NCBI GenBank assembly: GCA_036172245.1
Contig: JAYWIR010000128.1
Location: 62,001-82,457, forward strand
Direction of reading: 5' to 3'
DNA from: Raillietiella orientalis
Lineage: Eukaryota
Length of the DNA stretch: 20,457 bases
Shown: piece after piece, positions 1-20,457 of the stretch
Position numbering within the stretch: the first letter of the stretch is position 1
How the letters are laid out: each line of letters begins with the position of its first letter
Translations under genes and position numbers: made by a program
The notes under the pieces: model-generated
What the model was told of the DNA's origin: nothing
Databases searched by the model: none
Seen by the model: the letters and a program-made list of their open reading frames with translations, nothing else

Positions 1-3000
1 GATCCTCTTCAGGATGAATCGGTACGTCCAGGCGTGGATCTTCCCGCAGTTCCTGATGCCGATTTCCCTCTTCAAGAGCTCTTGTAGGATCTCCATCAGT
101 GGTGCGGCTCTCCTGGCTTTCCTCATTTTCAACCACCGCACAAGTATGGCGGTGATGAGGAGGGCTATGGTCGTCCTCACCATGGGATTGTAACAGCGAA
201 CATTACCATCCCCATGGAACATCCCGGCGAGGATCTCCATAACGGATTTGTTGGTAAGTCCTTTGATCCTTTTCAGGATCAGCCAGTCATACAGCAGTGT
301 GGGACACGTCAAGACGTGAAGTCTCGTGTCGTCGTCTCCACATGCTGCGCAGTCTCGGTCTTCCCGTCTTCCTGTGAAGTGCTGCAATCGGGACCCACTC
401 TGGATTCCTCCGTGATAAAACATCAGGAGGTCGTCCTGGGTGCCCGGCGGAAGGTCACTCCTTTAGAGCGTCGTGCCGATCGCTAACAGGTTGAACCGTT
501 TACTCCCGTAGCGTTCGGTGGCTTCCTGGAGGGCACTGATGTCACGGTCGTTTTCTTGGATAAGCCTTCGGAGGTTTGTTCTGGTTACCCTCGACCATGC
601 GAAGTCGTTGTGGTTGAACCACACTTCGCGGGTCCTGTGGGTAAACCTTCCTAACATCATCTCTGTATACCGAAGTATACGAGTTTGATGTAGGTAGCTT
701 CCTCGCCTCCACTCCTGGATTTGCAGTAGGGTAACTCTGGACCGCTGGTAGATCCAGCTTCTCGTGTCCGGCGGCCCACGAAGCATCCAAGGGATCACTA
801 GAATAAACTCGTCCTGCCGTAGTTCCCTGCTTCGCGGCACGATCTTGATTTGGTGCTTCCGCACCAGCCGTTGCTTCCTCTTCCAGGTCGGGTCGATTGT
901 TATCCATTCCCCTATTTTGCCTAGCAGCGCAGTCATCAGGCCTTTCGAGTTGTTAAGCAACAACGCGTCGGCGCTGTGCGCCGCATACGGCCAGTCATCC
1001 CAGTAAGTGGCAATGTCCAGGATGTGTCGCGTATCCATGATTTCCATGGAATGTGCAAGCGAATTCATCCCGGAACCGCCTTCTTCCCTGGGACGACACA
1101 GGGGTTTCAGTCTTACTCTTGGGCGATAGTGGCCCCAGAGTGTTTTTCTTTGCAGCTTGTCGAACTCCCTAGTAGTGTCCTTGTTCATCCTCGCGAAGGC
1201 CGCCCCGAAGAGCACTTTCGGAAGGAGTACTCCGTTCCATATGTTGGCTTGATGCTTCATCCCAAGGTCCGTTCGGGTGTACTTGGCTGCTTCCTTGGCC
1301 GTTTTCCCCAGTATTTCCTTCCACAGCAGCTTCGACGCAGAGTCGTCTCCGATGTAGACTCTCAGGTACTTGGCCGTGTCCACCGTACGGAATCCACTAC
1401 CCGTTAAAGTGGAGAGATTCAGGATTCCGACGGGCAAAAGCTGGCTCTTCTGGGAATTGATTTTTAAGCCCAAGCCCTGTTCCATCAGGTCCACCACATC
1501 CAGAAACGCACGCTGATTTTTCTCTTTCTTGATGAAGAAAAGTAGATCATCGGCGTATGCCAGATGGATAAGACGCTGGCCATCGATGGTAATCCCGCTC
1601 AGTCGTCCGCTCTTCTCGATATAGGACGACAACTCCTCCATATAGATGACGAACAGCATCGGACATAGCGAGTCGCCCTTTCAGACTACTTGTTCCATCC
1701 TGATTGCTGCCGCCTCCTGGCCGTTGATCTTGATTTGGCAGTACTGGTTCTGGAGTACCATCCTCACGAAGTTGCTGAAGTGTTCCGGAAGCCCTAGCTT
1801 CTCCAGAACCTTCAGCAGCATCCCGTGGTCGATGGAGTCAAAAGCCTTCTCCATGTCAGTGAACACCAGCACCAGTTTCTCGCCGACGTATCGACTGAGT
1901 CCAACAGTGGCCTGGGCACACTTTACATTGTCCGACATGTGTCCTCCTGAGACTGCACATGTCTGCACCGGAGAGATCAGCATCGACATGACCTTGCCTA
2001 AGCGGTTGAACCAGATCTTCGCCATCCACTTGGCATCGGAGTTCAGGATCGAGATTGGCTTCCATTGAGCGACCTGCGTGAGGTCGCCTTCTTTTGGCAA
2101 CAATCTCATCCGAATCTCGTAGGACTGAGGTAGTCTACCTTCTTCTTGGATGCAGAGGGTTAACTGGTGGAACAAGCGCAGGTAGGCGTGCAGGTGCCGC
2201 TGATAGTGCGTGATGGGTACACTGTCAGGGCGCGCTGCCACGTCCTTGCAAAGTTGCCCAAACGCAGTCTTCACCTCTTCTTCGGAGAACTCCTTCTCCA
2301 GTCTGTTCCGTTGGAGTTCGTCGGTCCTCTTCTCGAGACAGCTCAAGAAGGCCTGTTGACTAGAGCGACACAGATGTTGTCGCCTGAAGTGTTTCGTATA
2401 TTGCCTGTGAAAGGCATCCACGATGTCCTCAGACGACTGCGGCTTTTGGCCGTCGTACTGGATGCAGAAGCTATCTGTTGCCAGATTTCTCTTCTCCAGC
2501 ACGCCGACTTCCCCTTTTATGTTATTGAGGACATACCGACTCTCGTACTGATCGAAGTACTTTGAGACGGAGCGATCTTGGATGTTCAGCTCCCGGTAAG
2601 CCTCGTGCCTCAAGCGCCTATCGCCGAACTGCATGTTCGCAAACAGGTGTATCCTGTGTTGCAGGCTGTCCCAGTCGGCGACTTCGGATTGTTGTTGCCT
2701 TCAGAATCGTTCCAGGACAGCCTGATGTCCGCGATGGGTTTCGCACCAGGCGGGCATGCTGAAGAGCGCCGCCCTGGTGCCTTGCCTCCGCCAAGGATTC
2801 TCTGTTCTTAGGGAAAACCGCACCAGGGGGTGATCGGACATCGTAGTCATAGTGTCGCAAAACCACTGGATGCGGTTCCCAAGTTCGGAACTGTACAGGA
2901 CGTAATCGATCGGCTTGTGACTTGCTGTTCGCCAGACCAGTCCGAACTCGTCGGATAGCCGTCGATACGCTGTCCTTCCTCTGACGTCTTCTGAATGAAT

Positions 3001-3488
3001 GATCTCATCCAAGATGTTGAGTTTGCCAGCAACAATCACGACGCCTTTAGGGGGGACCTTTTGCCGGAGTGCTGCATGCGGCGCCTCCGCACAACGATGT
3101 TTTAGCCTGTGCGGCCCGTAGAAGTTCACCAGGATAAGGTGAACAGTTGCGGACCAGGCTAGTCGCACGTTGATGGTTCGTCCTGGTTGAGGAGAGAAAA
3201 CTTCTAGAATATTGGGGGGGCTAAGTGGTTCTTTATTATCACCGCCACACCCTTCGTGTTCCGTTCTCCTTCGCTGACGAACATCTGCTTGTTGAATCGC
3301 CGTTTCCTTCGCTGGCTGATCTCGAGACCCATCCTGTGGGTCTCCTGCAGGCACACGATGTCTTGTTGTGCGATGGTCCGCACAATCCTTCTTCTTTTTC
3401 CCTGGTCGACCACAGCGCTTTCGTTCCAGGAGGGGATGTTCAGCCTCCTGGCGGTCGATAGGGAAGAGGTCGTAAAAGGGGAAGACCT
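1..3488 (-). pseudogene. Element A ORF2 (APE endonuclease - reverse transcriptase - zinc finger), disrupted
   Basis: LNIPSWNE..DIVCLQETH, NFYGP, AGKLN (GDFN site), IDY, SDH; LLPKEGD..WKPISILNSDAK, DMEKAFDSIDH, V*KGDSLCPMLF (in-frame TGA at 1681-1683), YADDLLFF, KYLRV; after TAA at 463 the frame continues to CAACGDDDTRLHVLTC. Several frameshifts. Confidence 0.93.
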
Positions 3489-4810
3489 ATTTCTTGGCCT
3501 TCCTTAGCTTCTTCTGTCTGGGAGAGCGTGCTCTTCCAGATGTCGAAGAAGCAGCGGGCTTCTTGCTGCCGGCGTCACTCTCCGTACCTGAAAGGTCGGT
3601 AATTTCCACCTCCTCCGTAAAGTGTTTTGCCCGCGCGATCAATTTTCGAGATAGCGCCTCTATCTCGACCTTGGCGCAGAAGTTCGCCTTCACGTCGCGA
3701 TGCTGTTCCTTTTACTTCTCGCGTTCAGCTACCTCCACAACCTGGTTGATGTTCTCTTGTGCAGTGCAGATCTTCTGCAAGATTTTCTCTTGCTGAGGAG
3801 CGCTCTGCATCTCCATGATCTCCTCCGCCAGTGTTGTCAACTCCTCCGTGGTCTGCAGAGCCTCCTGCGACACTTTAGTGGCTTCCTGTCTCTCTTCCTT
3901 CCGGCCTTCCTGCGCTACGTCCATCTTCTCGCCTTCCTGCTCTGCTGCTTCCAGGATATGAGGAGTTCCTTGCTCCTTGACGAGCATCCTCCTCTTTCCC
4001 TTCTTTCCCACTTCTATGAAGCCGTCCGCCGACACCGGGACGGCTTCTTTCAGCTTCTTCGGCTTTCCTGCTTTCTGAGGCTGTTCGGCCTCCTTGATGT
4101 TACTCTTTCTCCCGGGAGAGAGACCTCGAATCCTTCTGCAGTTTTCAAACTCCGGACAGCTCCATTTCGCATGTCCGTGTTTCTTGCAGAAGGAGCACAC
4201 CTCCGGCTGCGGGCAGTTACGGACTTGATGTCCTACTTTGCCGCAGCGAAAGCAGCGGCAAGTTCGGCAAGCGCCGGCCCTGTTGCCGAACTGCTTGCAC
4301 CCGTTGCAGAATACCGGTTGTTGCCGGTAACGCACATTCACTCCCTGGGATTGTTCGTCAATAACGGCCAATCCAGGGATCACCGCTCCCTCCCTCAACT
4401 TCATCTTGGCGATCAGGTCGCCAGAAAATATGTTTCCAGAGAAGTTCTGGAAATCAAGGTCCAGAGCTTCCTCAAACTGCTCCAAGTGATTCCACACCTC
4501 TAGTTGCGGTGTGAGGATGGAGATGCCATTTAAAAAGACGTTTGTGTATGGCATCTCGCCAATACCACAAACCATCCGTCCTTGTATATTGATCCCCTTC
4601 TGGATCAATCGCTCTCTAATGTTTTCACAGTCTGTAAAGTCTGTGAACCGGTTGTTCGATGGAATGATCGCCTGAATGCGATCAAAGTCTATGTCCGTCT
4701 TGTCGAGGGACAAGTAGACCTCCCTGATGTTCTTAAATTTTATTAGCCCGGTCTTGAAGATAATGGGCTTCACGTTGGTGCCTATTTGGATTATTGGTCG
4801 GTCCACTTTT

Positions 4811-5287
4811 AGAACTTTTCTGCTAAGCGGCTTACCAAATTTCCTAGGTGGATTGACACTCGCCTGTCGAGCCGCCACCGACGCATAAGAATAGGGCTGC
4901 GACGCCGCAGCCGAACAAGATGGCGTCGCTCCCTGCACCGCGTGGACGCCCGCGGGTCTCGCCTGGGAAGCCGCCGCAGCGGGCGCAAACCTCGACGTTG
5001 CCGCCGTTACCTCCGCGGGCGGCACCTTCGGCATCGCCGCCGCAGGCGCGACCTTCCCCGCCGCGGGCACGATCCTCGGCGTCGCCGCTGCGGGCACTAC
5101 CCATGGCATCGCCGCCGCCGGCGCAGCAAAGTCCGCCGCGGGCGCGATCCTCGGCATGCCTGCCGCCACCTCGCCGTTGCCGCACGTTACCTCCATGGCT
5201 TCCATGGGGGACGATGGCCTCACCACTCCTCCAACCCCAGATGCCTGCATCCTGGCAGCTGTTGCGGCTGCTCGGGACGACTGCAGG
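4811..5287 (-). repeat. ~0.5 kb block present in inverted orientation at 14011-14511
   Basis: Both encode RPSSPMEAMEVTCGNGE..MPRIAPAA..SYASVAARQASVNPPRKFGKPLSRKVL with long identical DNA runs. Confidence 0.95.
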
Positions 5288-5310
5288 ACTTCCACCGTGG
5301 ACTTCTCGGC

Positions 5311-5329
5311 GCTGCTGCTGCTGCTGCTG
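5311..5329. repeat. (GCT)6 microsatellite
   Basis: gctgctgctgctgctgctg; reads as poly-Ser in the A ORF1 frame, upstream of its first ATG. Confidence 0.9.
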
Positions 5330-5454
5330 ATGGTTCCGGTTGCACTCTTTCCACACTGGCGTTCACTCAAACACTTGCCTCCTCAAGGCACTCAAAAATT
5401 GCCTTGGCAGTGGTTTTAAACACTGCCTTGGCGGGGTATTGGGTATAGTTTTAA

Positions 5455-6204
5455 ACTAGCAATAATCACGCCTCCCTTTCGTTCAGCGGCAGCGATATTG
5501 CCCGTGCGCAAGGCTCTCGCGATCGCTTAGGAAGTTGCTTACGCCTGCGCGGGGCAGCACTCCAAGATGAAGCCAAGGCAACGGCTCTTACATCCGTGGA
5601 AGCAACGCCATTTCAGGATGGCAAAGATAACTGCGACGAGAAGGAAGACGGCTGGATGCAGGTGAGAAAGATCATTAGAAAGAAACCATCAAGGTCTTCG
5701 CAGCTCTGTGTGAAGGTGAGCGGGCGAAAGAAATCCGCGATACCTTCCCAGAAAAAGATTGCGATTCTTTCCTCCTGCGCAGTCGTCCTCTCGCGGCTGG
5801 AGCGGGAAGCTGCTGCTGCGGCTAAAAGGACGAAAGTCCCAGCCGCAGTTTCAAAAAGCGCTACAAAACAGGCAGCAAACGATTTCCCTAATTCCCGGAA
5901 ACAGCTGCAGCGCCTGGCAAGCCCTCGACTGTCGGATTCTGATCCAGAGTCCGACAGGAAGAGCACACAGCGCGACAACCGCCCGAAACCGCGCAAGCGC
6001 CTCCCGGAAACCCGCAAGCGTGTGGTTGCCGAGGAGGAACTGTTGTTGGGGAGCAAAGAGGAGGAAAAGGACCTCACCTCTGAGCTACCGGCAACAAGCA
6101 GTGCGGCTTAGAATGGAGATGTTCAGTCTCCGAGATCGACCGCTCTGTCTCGTGACCACTCGCCGGACAAGGCGAGAAATCTGTGCTCACCTTCCCAGCC
6201 TTAA
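5455..6204 (+). pseudogene. Element B ORF1 remnant resembling an ORF1 C-terminal region (no RRM or knuckles)
   Basis: DGWMQVRKIIRKK and ILSSCAVVLSRL match post-knuckle motifs in C (EWQEFTTKKKK, LKECSIVVESV) and A (DGFIEVGKKGK). Premature TAG at 6109-6111; the same frame ends SPSQP-TAA at 6202-6204. Confidence 0.7.
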
Positions 6205-9200
6205 TGCAGGAAGTAGCCTTTTTTCGTCGATTCAGCGTGGCCTGTTGGAACGTCAATGGGCTGCGCAGGGACGGAAAGAGGAGCGACGTGTCAGATACCC
6301 TGCGACATTTCGATTTGGCCATCATTCAGGAGATGCATTACATCTCCGATGCGGAGGTTGCCGAAATCGAACAGCGCGCGGGTGGCACCCTGTACTGGCG
6401 AAAAGGTTCTGCACAATCGTGCGGATTTGGTTTTCTCGTCAATAGTAGGATATCGGCAGCGGCAAGCAGCGTTCGATTCGACCAAGAAGAGCGAATGGGC
6501 AACTTTGTACTCAAGTGGTCAGATTCAATCGATCTCGTCGTAACGAACGTGTACGCGTCGAGCGGCTTTCATCGGCATGTCGAAGGAATCTAGTTCTCCG
6601 ACGTGCTGGAGAGCCAATGGCTCAGAAACTCCGGAGCCAGAGTGGCGCATCTCGTCGCAGGGGACTTTAACGTCCACCTGCTTTCCAACGAGACGAGGTC
6701 CCTGGCGGAAAATCGCGGGTGGAAGAGGCATGCGCGTCGCTGCACGCACGTAACTTGGAAGCCGGGGATCCTGGAATAGAGAGGTGCGTGGATCACCACT
6801 TCCTCGATGAACACCTACTCTCGCGAGTGCGAAGGAGAGGCAGGGTGCCGTCCACGTTATCGGACCATGATAGGCTGGAGTTCGAGCTACTTCCGCCGAA
6901 CAAGGGACCTCCAAACAATGTTTGGAGGATGTCGGCGGATTGGCTGAGTCACCCGGAAGCGGCGGAGCATCTTCGCCAGTTCCTTCGCGGCTTTGCCATC
7001 CGGGAACTCGCCGACTGGAACCATCTTAAAATATCGGTTCGCGAGTTTTGCGACCGGTTCCCCCTGCACCTCCTACCACGCGGCTTCGGGGAAGGCGTGG
7101 CCAATAGCACAGCATGTCTGCAGGCGCGCATTTTCTCGAGACGTGCGGAAGTCCGGCAACTCTCAGAGTACAAGGCGAGGGCCGAGCGCCAGGTCTGGCA
7201 GTCTCGAGCGGCTATTCTGCTCGACGACCAAGGCCGGGAATGCACGGCTGCTGCCGAAGTGCGGCGAGCACTAAAGCGTCACTTCTTGCTCTACGCTAAT
7301 TCTTCGACGGAAGGAGTCCTCACCGAACTACTTTTGCCGCGGGCTGCACACGGCATCGTCGAGAAGGAACGCGATCGTGTCGACGAGCGCTTCACGTTAG
7401 AGGAAGTTTCTTCCGCCATCGCAGGACTCAAGAGACGGAAGACGCCAGATGAGGACGGACTGCCCGCGGAGTTCTATCAGAGCTTCGCAGCGGAACTCGC
7501 TCCACTGGTTCATAGATTCTCGACGCTGATGAGGGTGACGGGCGATGTCCCATCTTCCTTCCGTCCAGCAAGAATGCCTCTCCTTCCGAAAGGAGGGGAT
7601 CTGCGTCAACTCAACAACTGGCGTCCGATCACATTGGTGATTACGGACTTCAAGTGGTTTTCGAAGCTGTAGGTCACGCGCTTTGGGAAAGTCGCGGAGT
7701 CCGTGGTAAGCCCGGACCAGTCTTACGCTGTATCGGGCAGATCCATGCATGCGAACCTTCTTTTCGCGCGCACAAGGTAACAGCTTCAAGAGCGCGTTGC
7801 GGCGGATAGCCGAACAGCGGCAAGACCTTCTGCCGACTGCGTGCGCTAGTGTGGACGAAAGGAAGAAAGGCCGGGAGCCTTGGCACAAGCAGTATATTTG
7901 CACAAAGGATTAACCTGCGTAAACGAGGAACAACTCTTGAAGCTCCTGGAGAGTCTTGGGCTTCCGAATCATCTTCTACTGTACTTGCGCTCATGATGGC
8001 GCCACGCGATTATCAACTTGAATTTCAGTGGCTCCCGCATGTACGGTGTGGCCGTGCGCAGAGGCATTAGAGAGGTCGACAGCTGAAACCCGTTGCTCTT
8101 CAGCATCTTCATTGAGTTGGTGCTGAAAGCGTAGTGGCTGATGCTTGCCGTCCTGCCCAGCGCCTCTCCGTGCACTCCGTCCGCGGCAGCATACGCCGAC
8201 GACCTTCAGCTTCTGTTGCCCATGTCTACTCCGCCGCATTCGGTCCAAGAGTTCTTCGAGCTGATCCGTCGTGGAGCGGCCATGAGCGTTAACAGGGCGA
8301 AGTGCTTCGTCGTGCCGGTGGTGCGTCGTGGGAGGGACAGGCCGACTGGAACCGTTTGTGTATCCTCACGGTCGGGTACTACAAGTACCTTGGCGTACCG
8401 TTGGGCGACTTCTGCTCGTCTGAATAGTGGTCGGCCTGTCTTCAAAAGGCAGAGATGGCTCTAGGCCCGTTCCTAGAAGGCAAGTTCGTCTTGCCGGATA
8501 GGGCGTGCATATGGAACACTTTCCTTGCCTCCGTCCTCCGCCCCTTATTTTTTGTTTGCTTGCCTCCCTATGTAGTTAAACTCCAAGCGCAGCGTCTCCC
8601 ACGTAAGGGCTTTTGGAGCGCTGCGCGATCCAGGTTTCGCCTGAAAGATTTTGTGGCGTCATGCCAGAACGCATACCTGGGCATCCTGACCATCCAGAAG
8701 ATTGGACTGCAAGTGCAGTTTCGGCATCTATCCCTATGTGGTAAATTGTGGTCTATTCTCTGGGGTGCTCCAGCTCGCCATATTCTCCAGCGATGTGTCA
8801 ACAGTGCAGGATTGCTTTCCTTGCTGCCGCGCAACCTTCGCCGGAGAACTGGATTTGGCTACTTACTGAGGCATTTGTCCTCGTTGCTGTTAGCCCTTTC
8901 CTGGATTTCCTGCCGCTTCATCAATTAGAATGCTTGGCAGCAATTAGCTCTCGAGCACTGGAAATCCACTTCGGATGTGCGCCCAGAGCAACTGCGACCC
9001 TTACAGGGCCTCTTACGCAAACCGCTAATAGCGATCCTACAGGACAGGTCGCTTTGGTGCCGGATAGCCGTCTCACCCAACGCCGCAGCGCTGTCTGCTC
9101 TCAGGGCAAACAACGACAGTAGCCAACCGGAAAGGTTAAAGTTCTTCTGCAGCATTGCAGGAGTTGAGAGACTGCTGAGCGGCTGCAGAACGAGAGTCTT

Positions 9201-9770
9201 GGTAGACGCTGCCACTCCACGTTACCTGGCGAAGGGACTTCTTCGTTGGAGTGAGGTTCTTGGTTTACTTCCCTAAGATCTCGTGGTCCCTTCCTTGTTT
9301 GTGGACAGCTCCGTGTTCCCGCTTCGATGAAAACAAAATGTTCTTCTTTTTCTGCACTGAGGATTTTAGTGGAATAAGCGCAGAAACTTGGTTTCAGGGT
9401 GAGTCGTCTCCCCGAACTGCCTCAGCTGCGGGGCGATAGAATCGCCTACGCACTTCCTCCTTGAGTGTAGCGACTTGCGGGAGTTATGGCGGAGACTTGC
9501 TTCGGCACTTTGTCGACCTCAGGACACTGCCACAGACCTGCTTCGACGCTTCGTCAGCAAAGACGGACTGGATAAGGCGCTGCCATCGCAACATTCTCTT
9601 GCATCCTCGCCATCGTGATCGCCCGCCGTATGCTAGAAGGAAGCTCGCAGCGAACGGACCCCGCCAGAATCGCTGCGAACCTTATAAAAGCAGCTGTCAG
9701 GTGGACTCATCTGCCCAGAAAAGTCAACAGCCAATTCGATATTGTCAAACAGCGCTTCTAGAAAGATTAG
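6204..9770 (+). pseudogene. Element B ORF2 (APE-RT-zinc finger), multiply disrupted
   Basis: WNVNGL, IIQEMH, NVYA, AGDFN, VDH, SDH; KTPDEDGLPAEFY, LLPKGGDLRQLNNWRPITL, AYADDL, YKYLG, CLSCGAIESPTHFLLEC. The end is approximate. Confidence 0.93.
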
Positions 9771-10006
9771 GAACGTTTAATACCAAAGATTAAAGATTCC
9801 ACACTCCCGTGTTTTTTTTTGTTTTTTTGTTTGTTTGTTCGTTTGTTTTGTTGTGTTTTGTTAATTTTGTATCCTTTTCCCTCTGTTCCTTTCTTTTGGA
9901 AGGCGGCCTGCGTGCCGGTGCTCCTTCCAGGCTGAGCTCTCTGTATAGGCGTTTCTTGTGTCCTGCAGGGTTGAATTTCCCTTCAAGATTGTTTTTCGTT
10001 TTTACA

Positions 10007-10036
10007 AATAAACGTCCCGGCGCAACCGGGTCCAAA
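10007..10036 (+). terminator. 3' terminus of B: poly(A) signal + GC hairpin + AAA
   Basis: AATAAA cgt CCCGG cgcaa CCGGG tcc AAA. Confidence 0.8.
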
Positions 10037-10265
10037 CCGCATCAGCGCGGAAAGGCTCAGCACCCGGGGGAATAGCTCCGTTGCGAAGCACTGAAAGAAC
10101 TCCGCGGGCAGGCTATCCTCGCCAGGCGCCTTACGCCACTTTAAGCCCGCTATGGCGGAAGATACTTCTTCCGCGCTTAAGGTGCCAATTCCATCTGGCG
10201 CGTTCCTCCTCGTCGAAAGCAGTGCTACCCGTCGGAAGAAGCAGCTTGGAGAGACTTCGTTCCGT
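10037..10265 (-). pseudogene. Inverted N-terminal RT fragment
   Basis: Minus strand reads TERSLSKLLLPTGSTAFDEEERAR / EEVSSAIAGLKWRKAPGEDSLPAEFFQCFATELFPRVLSLSALMR, homologous to the B and E RT N-termini. Confidence 0.9.
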
Positions 10266-12156
10266 AAGCTGCCGTGTCGGCCTACTCCAACGACCTTGTG
10301 CTCCTGCTCCCCGGGTCGACCTTGGCGTCGGCGCTCGAAGATTTCTTTGAGTTGCTGCGCCGCGGGACAAGCCTCGAGGTGAACAAAGAGAAATCTTCCA
10401 TCGTTCCTACATCTTCACTGCTTTCAACAATACGGCGTGGGCCGGACGGCCGGACTGGATCCGCTTGGGGATCCCCACGGGCAGGTGCTTCAAGTACCTT
10501 GGCGTTCCGTTGGGGGACTTCTGCGTTGCAGAAGCCTGGTCCGACCATCTCCAAAAGGTGGAGTTGGCGATCGGCCCGTTCCGGAACGGCAAGTTTTACT
10601 TGCAGGAGCGGGCCGTGGTGTAAACGCGTTCGCGGCCCCCCTCCTACGCCCATTACTTTTTGTTTGCACCGCCCCTCATATCATACAGAGACGGACCAAA
10701 GCCATCTTGAGGACTGCCCTTTGGGGCAGAGCGAGGTCGCGAGTCCGATTGAAAGACTTGTGCGCTCCACGCAGGGATGGTGGCTTGGGCCTCCTTACGT
10801 TGGAGCGCATCCAAATACAGACAACACTTCGGAAGTTAGCCCTTGCGGCTAGCTTATGGATGACGCCATGGTGCGATCCTGCACGGCTCCTCGCCAGAAG
10901 AGCGACCGGCTGCGAAGGATTGTCCTCGATCCTCGTGGCCTACCAGCGCAGCCTCTCCAACTGTGGCCTTAATTTGCGCCAGATGGTCACCCTGATGAGG
11001 GAGAATACCTGGATCTCCTGCCTCTCCGCGAACTGGACTGCCTGGCTTCAGGAGTCAGCTTCCGCGTGGGCTAAGATCGACGGCACGAGCGACGCGGAAT
11101 ACAACTTCCTACGACGAGGACCGTACGCTCGACAGCCGCTGCAGGAGATTATTAACACGCCCCGGAAGTTTCTGTGGGCTTCTTTCAGTCCCCTTGCCCC
11201 CGTTCTGTCCTCCCTGAAAAACAGTAGGAGCAGCAACGAGCTGGCATCGTGGGAAGTCTCCTGCCTCATCCGAGGCAGGAAAAAACCTTTAAAGGCGTGG
11301 ACGACTCGGGAGCTCACGGACGCTGCCACCCCGAGCGTCCTGCCTCACGGACTTGCGCGCTGGGGAGAGCTGCTCGCAATACCTCCGAAGGAGGTGAAGT
11401 GGCCCCCAGCGTGTTGGGATTGCGGCATACTTCCGTTGAAGTGGCAGGAGACGGCGTTGCTATTTCTGCACTGGGGACTGTTAAGCAGAGCACGCCTGTC
11501 TCACTGGACACTGGGGAAAGTGGAAGCCCGCTGTGTCGACTGCGGAAAAAGAGAAACCTTCCCGCATCTCACCCTCGAGTGTGTCGCCCTGGATGGACTC
11601 TGGAGTAGAATCGCCCCAATCCTTCATCTTCCAGTAGGCGACACTAAGGAAATTTACCGTCGCCTCTTTCTGCTGACGGCCTGCGCCCCGCTGCGTCTCT
11701 AGCAGTCCTCTGCTGCGTGCGCGGCATTGTGCAAAGGTGGCACGCCAGAAGAAGAGGACCAAGATGCAGGGACGTTATCCACTGGACGACGTTCTCTTTA
11801 GAGACGGCGACAAGGTGGCGTCCAGCTCTCTCAGTTAAAGCAGAACTTGACTGCATCCTTAACAGGATGCGGAGGACCGACCCAGGCGCCCAGTAATCCC
11901 TTCCCTGCCCCCTCCCTCTCCGCATACAACTGTTTCTTTCCCCGTTATCTCTCTTGTTGTTTGTTTTTGTTCTAGTTTTTTCTTCCCATGCGCCTCAAGA
12001 ATGGACCTAACCGGTCTATGCACCGGCAACCGACACGTCCAGCAAGGTGGTTTACCCAGTGTTTCCCCACAGAAAACATCTTTTTTTAAAGACTTTATTA
12101 TCTAATTTTTGTAGAAAATTAGTATAATAAATGCCCCGGCATATCCGGGTGAGAAA
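10266..12156 (+). mobile_element. Element D: 5'-truncated LINE (RT from the YxDD region, zinc finger, 3' UTR)
   Basis: SAYSNDLVLLL (degenerate YADD), FKYLGVPLG, RVRLKDLCAPRRDGGLGL, CVDCGKRETFPHLTLEC (11532-11582), probable stop TAA at 11894-11896, T-rich UTR and terminal motif. Confidence 0.9.
12126..12156 (+). terminator. 3' terminus of D: poly(A) signal + GC hairpin + AAA
   Basis: AATAAA tgc CCCGG catat CCGGG tgag AAA. Confidence 0.8.
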
Positions 12157-13860
12157 CGTCGGCTAGATTGAGCATTCTCGGTCCTGGTCGTCGAGCAGAA
12201 CTGTCGCCCCTGACTGCCAGACCTGGCGCTCGGCCTTTGGCTTGTACTCGGATAATCGACCAACGTCAGCGCGCCTGGAAAGAGAGCATGCCTGCAGAAA
12301 ATTTCTGCTGTTGGCTACGTTCTCTTCGGAGCCGCGCGGAAGCTGGTTCAAGGGAAACCGGCAGCATAACTCGCGGACCGATCATTTCAGTTCGTCCCAG
12401 TGCTCGAGCTAACTTATGGCTAAGCCGAGGAGGTACTGGCGAAGATGCTCAGCCGCCTCCGGGTGGCTTAGGCAGTCTGCTGGCATCCTCCAAAAACAGT
12501 TTGGAGGCCTCTTGCCTGGCGGGAGCAACTCGAACTCGAGCCTGTTGTAATCTGAAAGCACAAACGGCACGGGACCTCTCCGACCCACTCGACAGAGCAA
12601 GTGTTCATCAAGGTATACGTGTTTCGGCGTTGCTGCCATAACAGGGTCGCTAGCGAACAAGTTGCACGCGTGCACGGACGCGCACATCTCTTCCGCTAGC
12701 AACTTTTCCCTTTTGTGGGATCTATTCTCGGAAAGCAGGTGGACGTTAAAGTCCCTCGCAATGAGATGGGCCGAGTAGGGTGAGATCGAGGGAGCCACTG
12801 GCTTTGAAGTGTACCGAAAAACTCAATCCTTCCAGCCCATTGTCCAGCACAGCTCGGCGCGTACACGTTGTTAACGACAAGGTCGATCGAGACGGACCAC
12901 TTGAGTACAAGCTGTCCCACTCGGCCTTCCGTGTCGAAACGAACGCTGCGCACCGCTCCCGCCAAAGTTCCTCGCACGAGGAAAGCGACGCCGCACGTAC
13001 GTGCAACGCCGCACCTATAAAGTAGCGTTCCGCCCGCGCAACTTTCGATTTCGGCAGCCTGCTCTCCGGAGATGCTGTGAATCTCCTGCAGGAGCGTCAA
13101 GTCGGAGGCGCGCAGAGCGTCAGCCACTAGTCGCCTTTTCTCCTCGTGTTGGAGCCCGTTGTCGTTCCAAGACGTTACAACAACACGACGAGAAGACGCG
13201 ATTGCCCTCATCACGGCTGGGAAAGCGAGGCCGTGGTGCTCGCCTCACCCGGCGAGCGGGCGGTAAGAAGCACGACGGGCTGGAGGGCGCAGTCGCCACT
13301 GGCCTCAACTGTGCTGCACGTAATCATGTGCTCCACCCCGGGTGCAGAACCTGTGGGTTCCGCGGTGAGCACTCGCCGTTCCACGGCGAGTGTGTCACGC
13401 CTCAGGGCTTCAGCACTGCGGGCGCTCGCTCCCGCGCGAGTTACGCGTCGCGGCGCTATAGGACTCCTTTGCGGTGTCTGATGATCGCACGATCGACGTG
13501 CGCTTGCAGGCGTCCGAGTGCACCGGAATGGTCTTCTCGGCTGTCACAGAAGCGGACTGGCACGCGTTGAAGCCGCTGGCTTTTTGCTTGGAAGTGGCAC
13601 AAGCTGCGCGTGTTTTCGCATTCCCGCGACTGCTTTTTCCTTTGGAAGAGCTCAGGGATGGATGTTGCGGAGCTTTTTTTGTAGATTTTTCTTTCCTCCA
13701 CTCCACATCCTTCCATTTGCCTTCGCGATTTTCGAAGGCTTCCGCGACAGTAGTTGCGGAAACCTCCGGAATTTTCGCTGCGTTCTCTGCAAGCGTTGCT
13801 TCCGCTACGCCTTTAAGAGGCGTCAATGGAGTCACCTTCTTGACAGTCGGGATACTGCTC
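12157..13860 (-). mobile_element. Element F: 5' half of a B-related LINE (short ORF1 remnant, APE, EN-RT linker), cut at its 3' side
   Basis: GKWKDVEWRKEK ORF1 motif, TGATG at 13213-13209, SWNDNGL, LLQEIH, NVYAP, ARDFN, SDY; linker LSEYKPKAERQVWQSGATVLLDDQDRECS matches B. Confidence 0.9.
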
Positions 13861-14511: not shown

Positions 14512-14554
14512 GGTGGTCGATCAGGCAGCACTGCCTGACACGACCACCAGTGCG

Positions 14555-14752
14555 TGTCAGGGGGCGGTGGCAACGTCGCCTCCTGAAGAAATGGAGTGCC
14601 AGGTGGCGGCGGTAACGTCGCCTCAAGAGAAGACGGAGTGCCAGGAGACGGCGGCAACGTCGCCTCCTGAAGAAATGGAGTGCCAGGTGGCGGCGGCAAC
14701 GTCGCCTCTAGAGAAGGTGGAGTGCCAGGGGGCGGCGGCAACGTCGCCTTCA
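14555..14752 (+). repeat. 42-bp coding tandem repeat, ~4.7 copies
   Basis: CQGAVATSPPEEME / CQVAAVTSPQEKTE / CQETAATSPPEEME / CQVAAATSPLEKVE / CQGAAATSPS. Confidence 0.95.
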
Positions 14753-16071
14753 GTGGCGAAAAAGGTGGCGGCGTCCGCCCCCACAAAACCGGTCCCCGCT
14801 GAAGCGCGGGCGTATAGCGCCGTCGTGTCGGCGCCATCGCCTGCAGCCGCGGCGGAATTATCTGCCTATGTGCAAGAGGGGTATAAACCGTCATTATTCT
14901 ACAAGGTAGGAAATTTGTATTCTTCTGAGAGTACGCGCGCCTTTTCGAAGGGGATGCGCGCTCTCGATGTTAAAGTGGAGGAGCTGTGCGCTGTGACCAT
15001 TCGTAGCAGGGGGCAGTACGTAGAGGTGATCTGCAAACATGCAGATCTGGCACAACGTCTGCTTAAAACCCCCGTGGTAATGGGGACACTAAGGTTCCTT
15101 CCCGTTACGGCGGACCACAGTATGGTGGTCCACCTTTTATAAGTTACCGCTCCGATGCGGAAAGAACAGTTACGCGCCTCGTTGGGAAAAGAAGGCACGG
15201 TGCATGCAGTATGGACCAAGCCTAGTCCTTTCGAGGACTATACCACCGCGCGAATGCTACAGAAAAAACTGGCGGCGAAGGCTGCCGCTCCAGCTGTGCC
15301 ACCCACTCCCGTGGTCCAGGCCTCAGCCGACACCCCGGCAACGAATGCCGAAAAGATCGACAAAAGCGGTCAGGTGTCGGAATGGCAAGAATTCACAACG
15401 AAAAAGAAAAAAAAGTCGAAGAAAGAACGACGAATTGAAAAAAAGCTCGCCTACCAAAATAAAGAACAGCATATTAGCGAGAATTTAAAAGAATGCAGCA
15501 TCGTCGTAGAAAGCGTCCCCGCCGCACGCCGCAAGGTAGAAATCGCTGCTACCGACGAGCAACCCACTGTTGAAAATGTCAACAGCGTGGGGAGCGAACC
15601 GGCGGAAGCGTCCGTCATCGAGACCGTGATCGATGACGCCGCCTTCGAGTGTGCGGCCTAGGAGCTGGCTGCATCGTTGCAGCCAGACCCCTCCAAGGCT
15701 GGCAAAAAGGCACCGAGGCGTCCGGCCTCCACCGAGGAGTCGGTAACTTCCATCCCCGAAAGGCAGGCCGAAAACCAAGTTTCCATCTCCGCGGCACCCC
15801 GCCGGAAGGCTGGAAGGAAGTCCAGAAAACCCCGGAAAGCCCCTCTCCAGGTCGAATACGTGGAGATGACTTCCGACTGCGAGGGTGCCATGAGCGTGGG
15901 AGAATCCCGGGAATCGTCACCCGAGAGACCACCATGCACAGACACTGAGGAGATGGAGGGGGTTTAAGCCGGAAAGGTACCCAAGGTGCCTGAGGAGGCT
16001 GAAACCCTAATGGTCATCTCACCCGCCTCGGAAGAGGAGGGTACCCCCACACCGTCATCTTCCCGGCAGTA

Positions 16072-16234: not shown

Positions 16235-16265
16235 TTTCTCACCTGGTCACGCCGGGGCGTTTATT
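16235..16265 (-). terminator. 3' terminus of E: poly(A) signal + GC hairpin + AAA
   Basis: Minus strand: AATAAA cgc CCCGG cgtga CCAGG tgag AAA. Confidence 0.78.
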
Positions 16266-19135
16266 CCATATAGCATAACCAAAAATAGCAATTATACAAA
16301 ATAAACCAGTTGGGAACCAAACTCCCAACCGACGACTGAGCAAGAATGAAGAGAATATTGCTGTCACGCAGGCCTGAGTAACTGTGTTCTGAACGGTGTG
16401 GGGGGGGCGGGGAACACAAAGAAACCAAAATAAAATGAAAACAATGAATAAGGAGGAGGGGATAAGGGTCTTTGGGATCGCTCTGGAAGACACGGGGATA
16501 AAAGCATGGGCACCGAAAATTTCACCGAGCGAACGGGGACGGGGTATGGGTGGGCGAGAGGTCGCATCGGTCACCAGATTACGCCGTTCTCAAAGGTGTG
16601 TAAACCGGGGATGTATGCCGGTGATGTCTTCATTCACCTTGTCACGAAGATGAGACCACCTTGAAGCCTTCTCCATGAATTGAGCTACAAGCAGGTGAGC
16701 CTCCCTTCGCTACGCTGACAACTCCAGGGCGTATCGGGCCTTCACGATGGCGCGAACGCAACACATGGTTGCGACAATCCCGCCAACCGAAAGTCCATTT
16801 CTGATGAAGAAGCGCTGCAGCACGTCAATGGTAATGCCTCCTTGTGGCATGATGGCCGAAGTGATCCTTCGCCACAGTTCCCGGAGGTCACCGCAGTCCA
16901 GCAAAAGTTGCGGAAAAGCCTCGTTCTCTCCGCACCTTAAACAGTTTGGCAAAGCAGCTCCCCCGAAAATGATGCTTCGCTGTCTATTACAGTGTAATGC
17001 ACAATGTAAAAAGAGCAGCACATCTTGTTTCTACTTAAGGGGGAACATCGAGCGGTCCAAACAAACGAACGGAACCACTATCTCTCCGGAGGGCACACTT
17101 AAATGTTCGCTCCACCGAAACAGGCCCTTCGCCCGATTCCGAGGTGTGACGGCTTGCACCAGCTCCTTTGTCGTCTAGCTGACGAGGAGCTTACTGACTC
17201 CCGCTATTTTGCAGGAGAACTCCCATTCCGCCGGTAGGCAACCGTCGTTGCTTGCCCTGAGGGCAGACAGCGCTGCGGCGAGTGGTGTGGCGGCCAGACG
17301 ATCCGACAACTTGTTGTCCTGCATGACTTCGTCCATTTGATGACTGCGGAGAAGTCGCAGGCGTCGAAGATCTTCCGAACGCGTTCCTTCGGAAGCTGAC
17401 CACGATGGAAAAGATTCCTGATGCCATGCATTAATGTTCATGGTGCGGTAGGAGATCCAGATTTGGGCTTCCAGCAGTGAGGACAGCTGCCTCAGCGGGA
17501 AGCCAAACCCTATTCTGGTGTTCCGACAGTGGGGTAGCAACAAAAGCCGTCCCTCGCTTCCCGTGGAGCGCCTCAGTATAAGGCGTGCGGGTAAGCACCA
17601 CGGCGTACACCACAGCTTGGCACAGAGCCGCAGCATGCGAAACTGCACCTGCAGTTCGATGCTGTTTAAGTCGAGGATGCCCAATCCTGCATCCTGACGC
17701 GGCGCCACAAAGTCTTGAAGTCTAACACGGGATCTTGCAGCGTTCCACAACGCTTTCCGTAGAAGGCGCTGCGCCCAGACTTTAACTTCCTGGGGGGTGG
17801 ACAAACAAAAACAGGAGGCGGCGAAGGGGGGCAACAAATATGTTCCAGATGCTGGCCCGTTCCGGCAAGACGAACTCGCCTCCTGAAAACGGGCCAAGTG
17901 CAGGCTCTGCCTTCCGAAGGCAGTCCGACTACGCTTCTGAGATGCAGAAGTCGCCCAACGGCACGCCAAGGTACCTGAGGTACCTGCTCGTGGGGATCCC
18001 CAGGTCGATCCAGTCGGACTGCGCCTCCCACGTCGCTCCCACAAAAAAAACATGCACTTGCTCCTGTTGACGCTCACGCCCGCACCGCGACGGATGAACT
18101 CAAAGAAATCTTCAAGCGATGTCGCCGGGGTGGACATGGGCAACAGGAGAAGCAGGTCGTCGGCATAGGCTGGCACGGCCAACGTTCCTGGACAGGAGCT
18201 CGGCAGGTTGGCTAGCGTCAGCCTGTAAGCCTCCAGCACCAATTCAAAATAAATGCTGAAGAGCAGTGGGCTTAAGCTGTCACCCTGCGTAATTCCTGAT
18301 CGTACCGGCACGCCGTACACGCGACAGGCACTGAAAACAATGGATGTAATCGCGTGGCGCCTGCAGGAGCGCAAGTACGCCAACAGGGATGCCAGAAGAC
18401 GCAGACGTTCCAAAAGCTGAAGAAGAAGCTTTTGGTTCACGCAATCGAAAGCTTTGTGCTGATCGACTGCAACCACCAAGGCTCCCGGTGTCTCTCTTTG
18501 CGTCTCGCGCCTCCGTCGGTAAGAGATCGCAGGTGGCGCTTCCGCACGACGATCCACCGCCACACGATGCTGCAATAGCAGCCATGTGCGGATGAACAAG
18601 AGATTCGCGTCCATGGACCGCCCAGGAACAGCTTATGTCTGCTCCGGACTTACCAAGGATTCCGCAATCCTACCCATCCGCGTTACCCAAAATTTCGAGA
18701 ACAACTTGACGTTCGAATGCACTAATGTGATCGGACGCCAGTTGTTCAGTTGGCGCAAGTCTCCGCCTTCCGGCAGCAGTCGCACCTTCGCTGAGCGAAA
18801 CGAGGCGGGCACATCGCCCGAGTCTCGCATCAGCAACGAGAGTTGAAGCACCAGGGGGATGAGCTCCGCCGAAAAACACTCTGAGAATACAGCGAAGAGC
18901 CCATCTTTGCCTGGCGCTTTTCGTCTCTTGAGCCCCGAGATGGCAAAGGAAATTTCCTCTGCCGTGAAGGGCTCATCAAGACGCGCGCGTTCGTCCTCGT
19001 CTACAACAGGTGTATCAATCGGCAGAAGCAGCTGGGAGAGGCTGCGTTCCGTCGGTGCCTCTGCATACAGAGAAGAGTAATAGCGCCTGACTATCCGTCG
19101 CACGTCGGCTGGTGCCGAGCATTTCCTCTGGATAA
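16235..19135 (-). mobile_element. Element E: 3' half of a B-related LINE (RT, zinc finger, 3' UTR), decayed
   Basis: RKAPGKDGL, LLPEGGDLRQLNNWRPITL, DQHKAFDCVNQ, GITQGDSLSPLLF, AYADD (18156-18167), RYLGVPLG, CLRCGENEAFPQLLLDC (H replaced by Q). Confidence 0.93.
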
Positions 19136-19140
19136 AGTAA

Positions 19141-19558
19141 CCTCTTGCATCCGCGCCATCGTGATCGCCCGCCGTAAACAAGAAGGAAGCTCGCAGCGAA
19201 CGAACGCCGCCAGAATCGCTGCGAACTTTATGAAAGCAGCTGTCAGGTGGCCTCATCTGCCCAGAAAAGTCTCCAGGGAAGTCGCCATTGTCAAACAGCG
19301 CTTCCAGAAAGATTAGAAACGTTTACTACCAAAGATACCTGACCCCACTCTCCACTGGTTTTTTTTGTTTGTACCCTTATATTTTGTTTATTCTGCATCC
19401 CTCTCCCTTCCTTCGTTTCTTTTGGAAGGCACCCTGCGTTGATCTTTGTGAACTGAACTTACTGTATGGGCGTTTCTTGTGTCTCGTAAGGATGAATTTG
19501 CCTTGAAGTTTGTGGTTCGTTTTTACAAATAAACGTCCCGGCGCGACCGGGTTCAAAA
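19141..19558 (+). mobile_element. B': 3'-terminal fragment of a B-family element
   Basis: Aligns with ~9595-10036; ends AATAAA cgt CCCGG cgcga CCGGG ttc AAAA (19528-19558). Confidence 0.92.
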
Positions 19559-19760
19559 CGCATCAGCGAGGAAAGGCTTAGCACCAAGGGGACGAGCTCC
19601 GCCACAAAGCACTGAAAGAACTCCGCGGGCAGGCCATCCTCCCCAGGCGCCTTACGCCTCTTCAGGCCCGCTATGGCGGAAAATACTTTTTCCGCCGTGA
19701 AGGGCCAATCCAATCTGCGCGTTTCTCCTCGTCGAAAGCACGGTTGCCCTTCGGAAGAAG
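19559..19760 (-). pseudogene. Inverted RT fragment homologous to 10037-10241
   Basis: FTAEKVFSAIAGLKRRKAPGEDGLPAEFFQCFVAELVPLVLSLSSLMR, ending at the same codon as the first copy. Confidence 0.92.
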
Positions 19761-20021
19761 CAGTGATCCCTGCCCTGCCCCCCCCCTCTCCCCATGAAAC
19801 TGTTTCCCTCCCCGATATCTCTCTTTTTGTTTGTCTTTGTTTTAGTTTTCCCTTCCCATGCGCCTCGGGAATGGACCTAACCGGTCTATGCACCGGCAAC
19901 CGACACGTCAACCAAGGTGGGAAAGTCAAGTGTTTCACACAATTAACTTTTGAAAGACTTTATTATCTAATTTTTGTAGAAAATTAGAATAATAAATGTT
20001 CCGGCATATCCGGGTGGCAAA
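19761..20021 (+). mobile_element. D': 3' UTR of a D-family element
   Basis: Aligns with 11891-12156; ends AATAAA tgt TCCGG catat CCGGG tggc AAA (19991-20021). Confidence 0.92.
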
Positions 20022-20457
20022 CGACGGATCGATACGACGTGACCTCACGACAGCTGTTCAACCCGCCGCCTGAGAGGGTGGACGTGCTTTTGTGGTGCTC
20101 CGCGTTTTTCTCGCGAGTGTTTTCGGTGTTTTCAGCTGTGAGCGGTTGTTCCTGGGCAGAGATGCCCGAGGACGCCGCAAAGACGGCGGAGGGGGGCGAG
20201 CGAGCCTCGTCCCCCCAGCCCATGGATGTGGGGGCCATCTCCCCCACGGAATCGTCCCCCGCCCCGGCGAGGGCATGGAGCGCGGTGGTGGCGGCGCCTG
20301 CGCGCCCCCCGCAGAGGAACAGCGGGCCTATATGGCCGACGGCTACAACCCGGCCCTACTTTACAAGGTAGGTGGCCTGTACTCCCCCGCGGTTTTGCGG
20401 TCGTTCGCCGCGGAGTTTAAAAAGTTTAAAGTCCCGGAGGACGAAGTCCTCGGGCTT
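20022..20457 (+). mobile_element. Element G: 5' UTR and ORF1 start (ATG 20162) of a C-related LINE, runs off the window
   Basis: MPEDAAK..ERASSPQPMDV..ARAWSAVVAAP, frameshift near the C run at 20305-20310, then AYMADGYNPALLYKVGGLYS, homologous to C AYVQEGYKPSLFYKVGNLYS. Confidence 0.85.

Follow-up and report, generated by a model that had tools for sequence, protein, structure and literature searches.

A shared 30- to 31-nucleotide block with a predicted hairpin at the 3' ends of three apparently L1-like LINE families nested in Raillietiella orientalis DNA

The 3' ends of three LINE families that lie nested in one another are formed by the same block of 30 nt (family A) or 31 nt (families B and C), which stands at the terminus of the elements. 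The block was found in a 20.5-kb stretch of Raillietiella orientalis DNA (20,457 nucleotides, analyzed whole and called the window throughout), in which five of the five LINE 3' ends that could be located carry it. Each copy consists of AATAAA, a three-base spacer, two GC-rich arms predicted to pair as a 5-bp hairpin around a pentaloop, a T, two or three further bases, and AAA; the poly(A) tail that is usual for L1 is absent. We lean, with modest confidence, toward reading the block as a stringent-type tail, that is, as a conserved hairpin terminus that would be read by the element's own reverse transcriptase (RT), with AAUAAA placed upstream.

Nested LINEs and their five 3' termini

The window is GC-rich (50 to 65% per kilobase) and made of LINE fragments inserted into one another, which were mapped by comparing the window with itself at the DNA and protein levels. 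Element A1 (5516..10006, plus strand, 5' end approximate) holds an ORF1-like region and an RT region; its ORF2 ends near 9793 and is followed by a UTR of ~213 nt. The host LINE hit by A1, termed H herein, reads on the minus strand at 10037..10270, which equals A1 positions 7534 down to about 7300, and it resumes on the minus strand after B1, to about 13259. B1 is a 5'-truncated plus-strand LINE (10271..12125, 5' end approximate) that retains the C-terminal part of ORF2 with a zf-RVT-like match, its ORF ending at 11702 before the UTR. The ORF1-bearing LINE E, recognized on the plus strand by self-comparison, runs from 13931 to about 16236, where it is interrupted by the 5'-truncated LINE C on the minus strand (16266..19130, 5' end approximate, with RVT_1 in 17175-18632 and a UTR of roughly 330 nt). 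Two more 5'-truncated plus-strand copies lie farther on: A2 (19142..19527) comprises the last 198 nt of ORF2 and the UTR, and B2 (19761..19990) consists of UTR only. The minus-strand host LINE fragment after A2 (19558..19763) begins at the same host position as 10037 (A1 7534). All five of these element copies (A1, A2, B1, B2, and C) are old and broken.

Several other features of the window were recorded. LINE D, on the minus strand, is its least decayed element, and the 3' end of this LINE lies beyond the window. The LINE D ORF2 (1-3486) reads in one frame over four adjacent stop-to-stop frames (1-462, 463-1680, 1681-2700, and 2701-3486) and is thus broken by three in-frame stops only. A complete U4 snRNA copy (5378-5515, minus strand; Rfam RF00015, 96.2 bits, model positions 1-138 of 138, Sm site present) is joined without a spacer to the 5' end of LINE D, whose ORF1 spans 3712-5382, and stands head-to-head with the 5' end of A1; the joint looks like a chimeric snRNA/LINE retrocopy or a U4-associated LINE family. 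Tandem 42-nt repeats occupy 14554-14763 (plus strand) inside the ORF1-like region of LINE E, in four overlapping 84-nt copies that are 77-100% identical, and the homologous part of LINE D holds shorter GC-rich repeats at 5002-5151. Past B2 and 12 further bases, the sequence at 20034-20457 (plus strand) is unrelated to host H; the part at 20311-20448 matches the ORF1 region of LINE E at 41% over 46 aa and is possibly the 5' end of another inserted plus-strand LINE. From one public DNA run, which contains 0.14 of the window's words, 282 contigs were aligned with the window; they show related LINE copies and carry no information on the terminal block. In one record of this run, 12170 and 19116 are linked within a LINE that has no interruption.

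The terminal block, called the module below, occurs on the plus strand in family A at 10007..10036 (A1: AATAAA, CGT, CCCGG/CGCAA/CCGGG, then T-CC-AAA) and at 19528..19557 (A2: loop CGCGA, T-TC-AAA), where a fourth A at 19558 could be of either element or host origin. Family B carries it on the plus strand at 12126..12156 (B1: AATAAA, TGC, loop CATAT, T-GAG-AAA) and 19991..20021 (B2: 5' arm TCCGG with a U.G pair, loop CATAT, T-GGC-AAA), and family C on the minus strand at 16235..16265 (loop CGTGA, 3' arm CCAGG with one broken pair, T-GAG-AAA). The last base falls 24 nt (A) or 25 nt (B and C) past the AATAAA hexamer and 6-7 nt past the stem. Each module lies downstream of a same-strand LINE ORF2 or its remnant, and LINE sequence in the opposite orientation comes next. 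In families A and C this unrelated LINE sequence resumes at most ~2 bases from the AAA; family B regains clear similarity to the host only from 12168-12170, and 12157-12168 may be host or an extension of the B tail. The 12 bases after the two B tails (from 12157 and from 20022) are identical at 9/12 positions. A terminal short tandem repeat, such as (UGUAA)n, is absent from all of these ends, the AAA being all that closes the module.

An earlier note on this DNA, made from its letters, had placed the motif at 10007, 12126, 16265 (minus strand), 19528, and 19991, with the loops CGCAA, CATAT, CGTGA, CGCGA, and CATAT and with only 3-4 A at the end. A search with the 25-base pattern AATAAA-YGY-CCCGG-N5-CCGGG-T that tolerated up to three mismatches led to the same five places (n = 5 in the 20.5-kb window; any match in 0/100 shuffles), the loops were confirmed on all five copies, and every copy ends in three A's, A2 possibly in four. 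The copies at 10007, 12126, and 19528 (all plus) fit the pattern with no mismatch, and those at 16265 (minus; 3' arm CCAGG) and 19991 (plus; 5' arm TCCGG) with one. The strict form CCCGG-N5-CCGGG was exact at 10016, 12135, and 19537, three occurrences against 0.02 expected, and three were reached in 0/100 shuffles. A covariance model, proposed in the same note as a check, was built from the five copies and run over both strands of the window with filters off. It returned only the known modules, at 51.0 (A1), 52.9 (A2), 53.4 (B1), 49.8 (B2), and 46.1 (C) bits; the other three of the eight matches listed scored at most 9.6 bits and lacked the hairpin, and the scan found neither a sixth module nor an extra SINE-borne one in the 20.5-kb window.

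Family A occurs twice, in antisense, at a single site in the ORF2 of another LINE (the junctions at 10037 and 19558 each map to A1 position 7534), which fits site-specific LINE-into-LINE insertion. An uninterrupted version of this target is readable inside A1 itself (around 7534, minus strand) and holds no trace of the motif, which is therefore part of the element and not of the target. The objection that the earlier note had raised against its own reading, namely that the motif belongs to the target site, is removed by this intact, motif-free target together with the different flanks found in the three families. The order A2, host fragment, B2 repeats the order A1, H, B1, and a segmental duplication with internal deletion is a possible origin of A2 and B2. 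Between A1 and A2, 176/198 positions (88.9%) are identical in the coding part versus 145/188 aligned positions (77.1%) in the UTR. Better preservation of the coding part fits divergence under selection, as in active elements, and so favors separate insertions. Among the five copies in three families (A twice, B twice, and C once) we count 3 to 5 independent insertion events.

Conservation and predicted folding of the module

Outside the module, the 3' UTRs of different families do not align, as the earlier note had stated. Local alignments of the 200 nt upstream of AATAAA are at chance level between families (z 0.5-3.0, with 2-60 of 200 shuffles scoring as high); within families the same region gives z values of 24 and 70. 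The 25-base core is identical at 18-22 of 25 positions between families, and ORF2 DNA at 67-74%. These elements show one feature of a stringent tail, a conserved terminal block over a diverging UTR. Compared inside a family, the module has no clear advantage in preservation over the UTR (27/31 against 87% in B; 28/30 against 77% in A).

Variation inside the module is unevenly spread. With one copy taken per family, pairwise differences amounted to 0/18 in AATAAA, 4/9 in the YGY spacer, 2/30 in the arms, 8/15 in the loop, and 0/3 in the T; the difference between arms and loops has a Fisher p of 0.0009, which on one copy per family is descriptive only. The loops go by family, with CGCAA and CGCGA in A, CATAT twice in B, and CGTGA in C, and all fit C-R-Y-R-W. 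Judged from these sequences, fixed arms around variable loops have the look of a hairpin under selection. The earlier claim that stem and spacing are fixed holds with a reservation about the stem: three of the five stems are perfect, and the remaining two show one C-G to U.G change and one C-A mismatch (24/25 pair cells standard).

The 5-bp hairpin is present in the predicted minimum-energy structure of four of the five copies, and its pair probability is 1.00 in A1, 0.79 in A2, 0.95 in B1, and 0.88 in B2, against 0.12 in the mutated C copy. When the upstream sequence was shuffled, the probabilities for A1, A2, B1, and B2 fell to 0.76, 0.45, 0.85, and 0.85, lower than for the real sequences. 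For A (z -0.9 and 0.0) and C (z -1.5), the 60-nt end folds with an energy no better than that of shuffles; the values of -3.6 and -2.8 in family B are due to a separate AU-rich hairpin and not to the module stem. Compensatory changes were absent: among five similar sequences, 0/5 stem pairs change on both sides, three being invariant, one going from C-G to U.G, and one being broken. No such change appears because the arms hardly vary, and with none in five pairs the helix is a predicted rather than a demonstrated one. The data fit a conserved sequence, CCCGG...CCGGG, as well as they fit a conserved helix.

The AU-rich hairpin (about 8+9 bp) is seen in family B only, at 12096-12131 and 19961-19996 (plus strand), where UUUAUUAU is predicted to pair with AUAAUAAA and to cover AAUAAA. 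Pairing of AAUAAA with upstream sequence has probabilities of 0.94 and 0.86 in the two B copies versus 0.34 and 0.27 in shuffles, and values this high arose in 3 and 10 of 300 shuffles. Occlusion of AAUAAA by a second helix was rejected as a general feature of the window, the values for A (0.02 and 0.54) and C (0.26) being not above shuffles. A histone-type 3' end was also rejected, with no Rfam match and, by eye, no common purine-rich element downstream. Among curated RNA families, only U4 reaches the Rfam gathering score anywhere in the window, and none does so at the module.

Element class and searches beyond the window

Scanning of the 17 long stop-to-stop frames identified RVT_1 in three and a CCHC zinc knuckle in one. 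A zf-RVT match in one frame (25 bits) fell under the cut-off of 27.5, and an APE endonuclease match (Exo_endo_phos) at 6156-6593 in A1 was weak (23.4 bits against a cut-off of 24.5). When a 485-aa RT piece was compared with the PDB, the best five of the 10 matches listed were human L1 ORF2p (E values of 4.3e-10 to 1.4e-9), and R2 proteins among the same 10 reached 4.3e-7 or weaker; a PDB search with the piece 2701-3486 gave no match. Because the RT is closest to human L1 ORF2p among solved structures, the elements are called L1-like herein, and by sequence they appear to be L1-like (APE-type) LINEs of at least three diverged families, nested in one another. The earlier proposal of a cis-acting hairpin in a putative L1/Tx1 lineage is supported in part, by a LINE terminus that is conserved, folds in prediction, lacks poly(A), and accompanies an RT nearest to L1 among solved structures; compensatory changes numbered 0.

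Beyond the window, a relaxed form of the pattern had 0 matches in viral contigs and at least 120 loci in metagenome contigs. Searching these listed metagenome loci by tblastn with six LINE ORF pieces from the window yielded 0 relatives, so that the matches are unrelated and the pattern by itself, away from a LINE 3' end, is not diagnostic. A protein-based scan of viral contigs with the 485-aa RT piece gave six matching stretches, none of which was confirmed. A protein search gave three matches, the best at 43% identity, and a protein-cluster atlas returned RT clusters only, with uninformative taxa. Whether the motif is undescribed was something that the earlier note could not confirm. The principle has been described, since stringent tails are known, including in L1-clade lineages (PMC3472496), and the window adds three families to it. 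The particular module, common to several nested L1-like families and made of a GC hairpin with AAUAAA a constant distance upstream and three A's in place of a tail, was not found described in a search of the literature outside Repbase and Dfam.

Priming model, its alternatives, and known systems

What can be observed is that the module sits where element meets target, how it is conserved, how it is predicted to fold, and that an A tail is lacking. On this basis, the RNA would end in AAUAAA followed by a spacer of three bases, a GC hairpin of 5 bp closing a pentaloop, a U, two or three further bases, and a final AAA. The ORF2 protein would bind the hairpin, with the shared stem as a common handle and the family-specific loop (CGCRA in A, CAUAU in B, CGUGA in C) as a discriminator. 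Target-primed reverse transcription may then start at a fixed point 6-7 nt past the stem, and such a start would explain the three A's and the absence of poly(A) in new copies. AAUAAA is a putative poly(A) signal that probably has the transcript cleaved and polyadenylated near the end of the element, which would bring the 3' end of the RNA and the starting point of RT together. A more far-reaching form of the model, which we consider doubtful, is a two-part RNA address common to co-resident site-specific L1-like LINEs: a GC stem read by every ORF2 protein and a pentaloop confining each RT to the RNA of its family, with AAUAAA attached at a constant distance. The poly(A) site and the RT start would then be one, and no tail would ever be copied. 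If true, this form of the model would describe an L1-type lineage that gave up poly(A) priming altogether.

The invariance of AATAAA in all five copies also suits a module that is mainly a 3'-end formation signal, in which AAUAAA and the hairpin fix the cleavage/polyadenylation site, RT begins from the RNA 3' terminus or from the poly(A) base, and the hairpin is not recognized by RT. The distance from AATAAA to a poly(A) site is usually 10-30 nt, which includes the 24-25 nt seen here before the last base, and the window holds 15 AATAAA against 4.65 expected, five of them in modules. Priming on poly(A) normally leaves A tails of variable length, however, and here 3-4 A are found in 5/5 copies; family-specific loops over a fixed stem are likewise left unexplained, and we judge this alternative unlikely.

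Less probable again is that the exact, tail-less junction results from read-through transcripts annealing to a nicked, fixed target, with the hairpin secondary. Read-through RNA that anneals to the target sets the start in R2 and R1, and the presence of family A twice at one host position (10037 and 19558, both A1 7534) would agree with such a route. Against it, an invariant AAUAAA just upstream favors cleavage over read-through, and the retention of the module across families with different targets would go unexplained.

We give still lower probability to 3'-end exchange between families, by recombination or template switching, or to a role of the palindrome in DNA, in place of selection for an RNA hairpin. 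The arms do form a DNA palindrome without covariation, and template switching seems to occur in this genome, given the U4 snRNA copy fused to a LINE 5' end; yet exchange would bring neighboring UTR along, and the similarity stops exactly at the module, while family-specific loops argue against recent exchange. Finally, a five-fold resemblance by chance, or a motif that is part of the target site, can be dismissed as highly improbable: although the relaxed pattern alone is not diagnostic, at least 120 metagenome contigs without a neighboring LINE having matched it, the window has five matches versus none in any of 100 shuffles, each of the five closes a LINE, the motif is missing from the uninterrupted target, and the downstream flanks of the three families differ.

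A stringent-type tail in these elements would matter for several reasons. "Relaxed" template choice, which depends on poly(A), has its textbook example in L1-type LINEs, and L1 relatives with a structured end tag are informative on whether the clade started out with strict recognition, as Ohshima 2012 proposed (PMC3472496). Families with one stem and different loops offer a natural set for a loop-swap study of the way in which a LINE protein selects its RNA. In practical terms the module offers little more than a precise 3'-end marker for annotating nested repeat islands.

Stringent LINEs require a 3' stem-loop, and eel UnaL2, of the L2 clade, requires terminal repeats as well; it ends in (UGUAA)n repeats needed for template slippage (PMC1636434). 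In zebrafish ZfL2, a conserved part of ORF2 recognizes the stem and a variable part recognizes the loop (PMC4176376). Like UnaL2, ZfL2-1, and ZfL2-2, the elements described here end in a conserved 3' block with a short stem-loop, here a predicted one, that closes a pentaloop, and they do not depend on poly(A); their fixed stem with family-specific loops parallels the reading pattern of ZfL2. They differ from UnaL2 in ending with three A's and no repeat, and from the L2-clade systems in being L1-like by RT, in having AAUAAA fused upstream at fixed spacing, and in being known from sequence alone.

Conserved structured tails within the L1 clade occur in monocots and Chlamydomonas, for which a stringent mode was proposed (Ohshima 2012, PMC3472496). 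As here, monocot 1a (LINE1-1_ZM with ZmSINE2/3) and L1-1_CR (= ZeppL-1_cRei) with SINEX-3_CR are L1-type and conserve the last 45-80 nt, with a hairpin in the monocots (PMC3472496). The monocot case has compensatory changes and SINE partners (PMC3472496), neither of which was found in these 20.5 kb, and L1-1_CR ends in poly(A) repeats (PMC3472496), unlike the poly(A)-free ends here. In the Zepp/ZeppL clusters of green algae, L1-type LINEs pile into existing copies (PMC8226300), much as family A lies twice at one position of another LINE's ORF2; Table 1 of PMC3472496 gives (A)n as the terminus of Zepp, in contrast to the three A's seen here. Within the L1 clade, the Tx1 group is target-specific and likewise inserts at fixed sequences. 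Mammalian L1 has the nearest RT among the solved structures listed and shares AATAAA near the 3' end; it is "relaxed" and carries a long poly(A) tail, whereas the elements of this window have no tail and bear a conserved hairpin sequence at their terminus.
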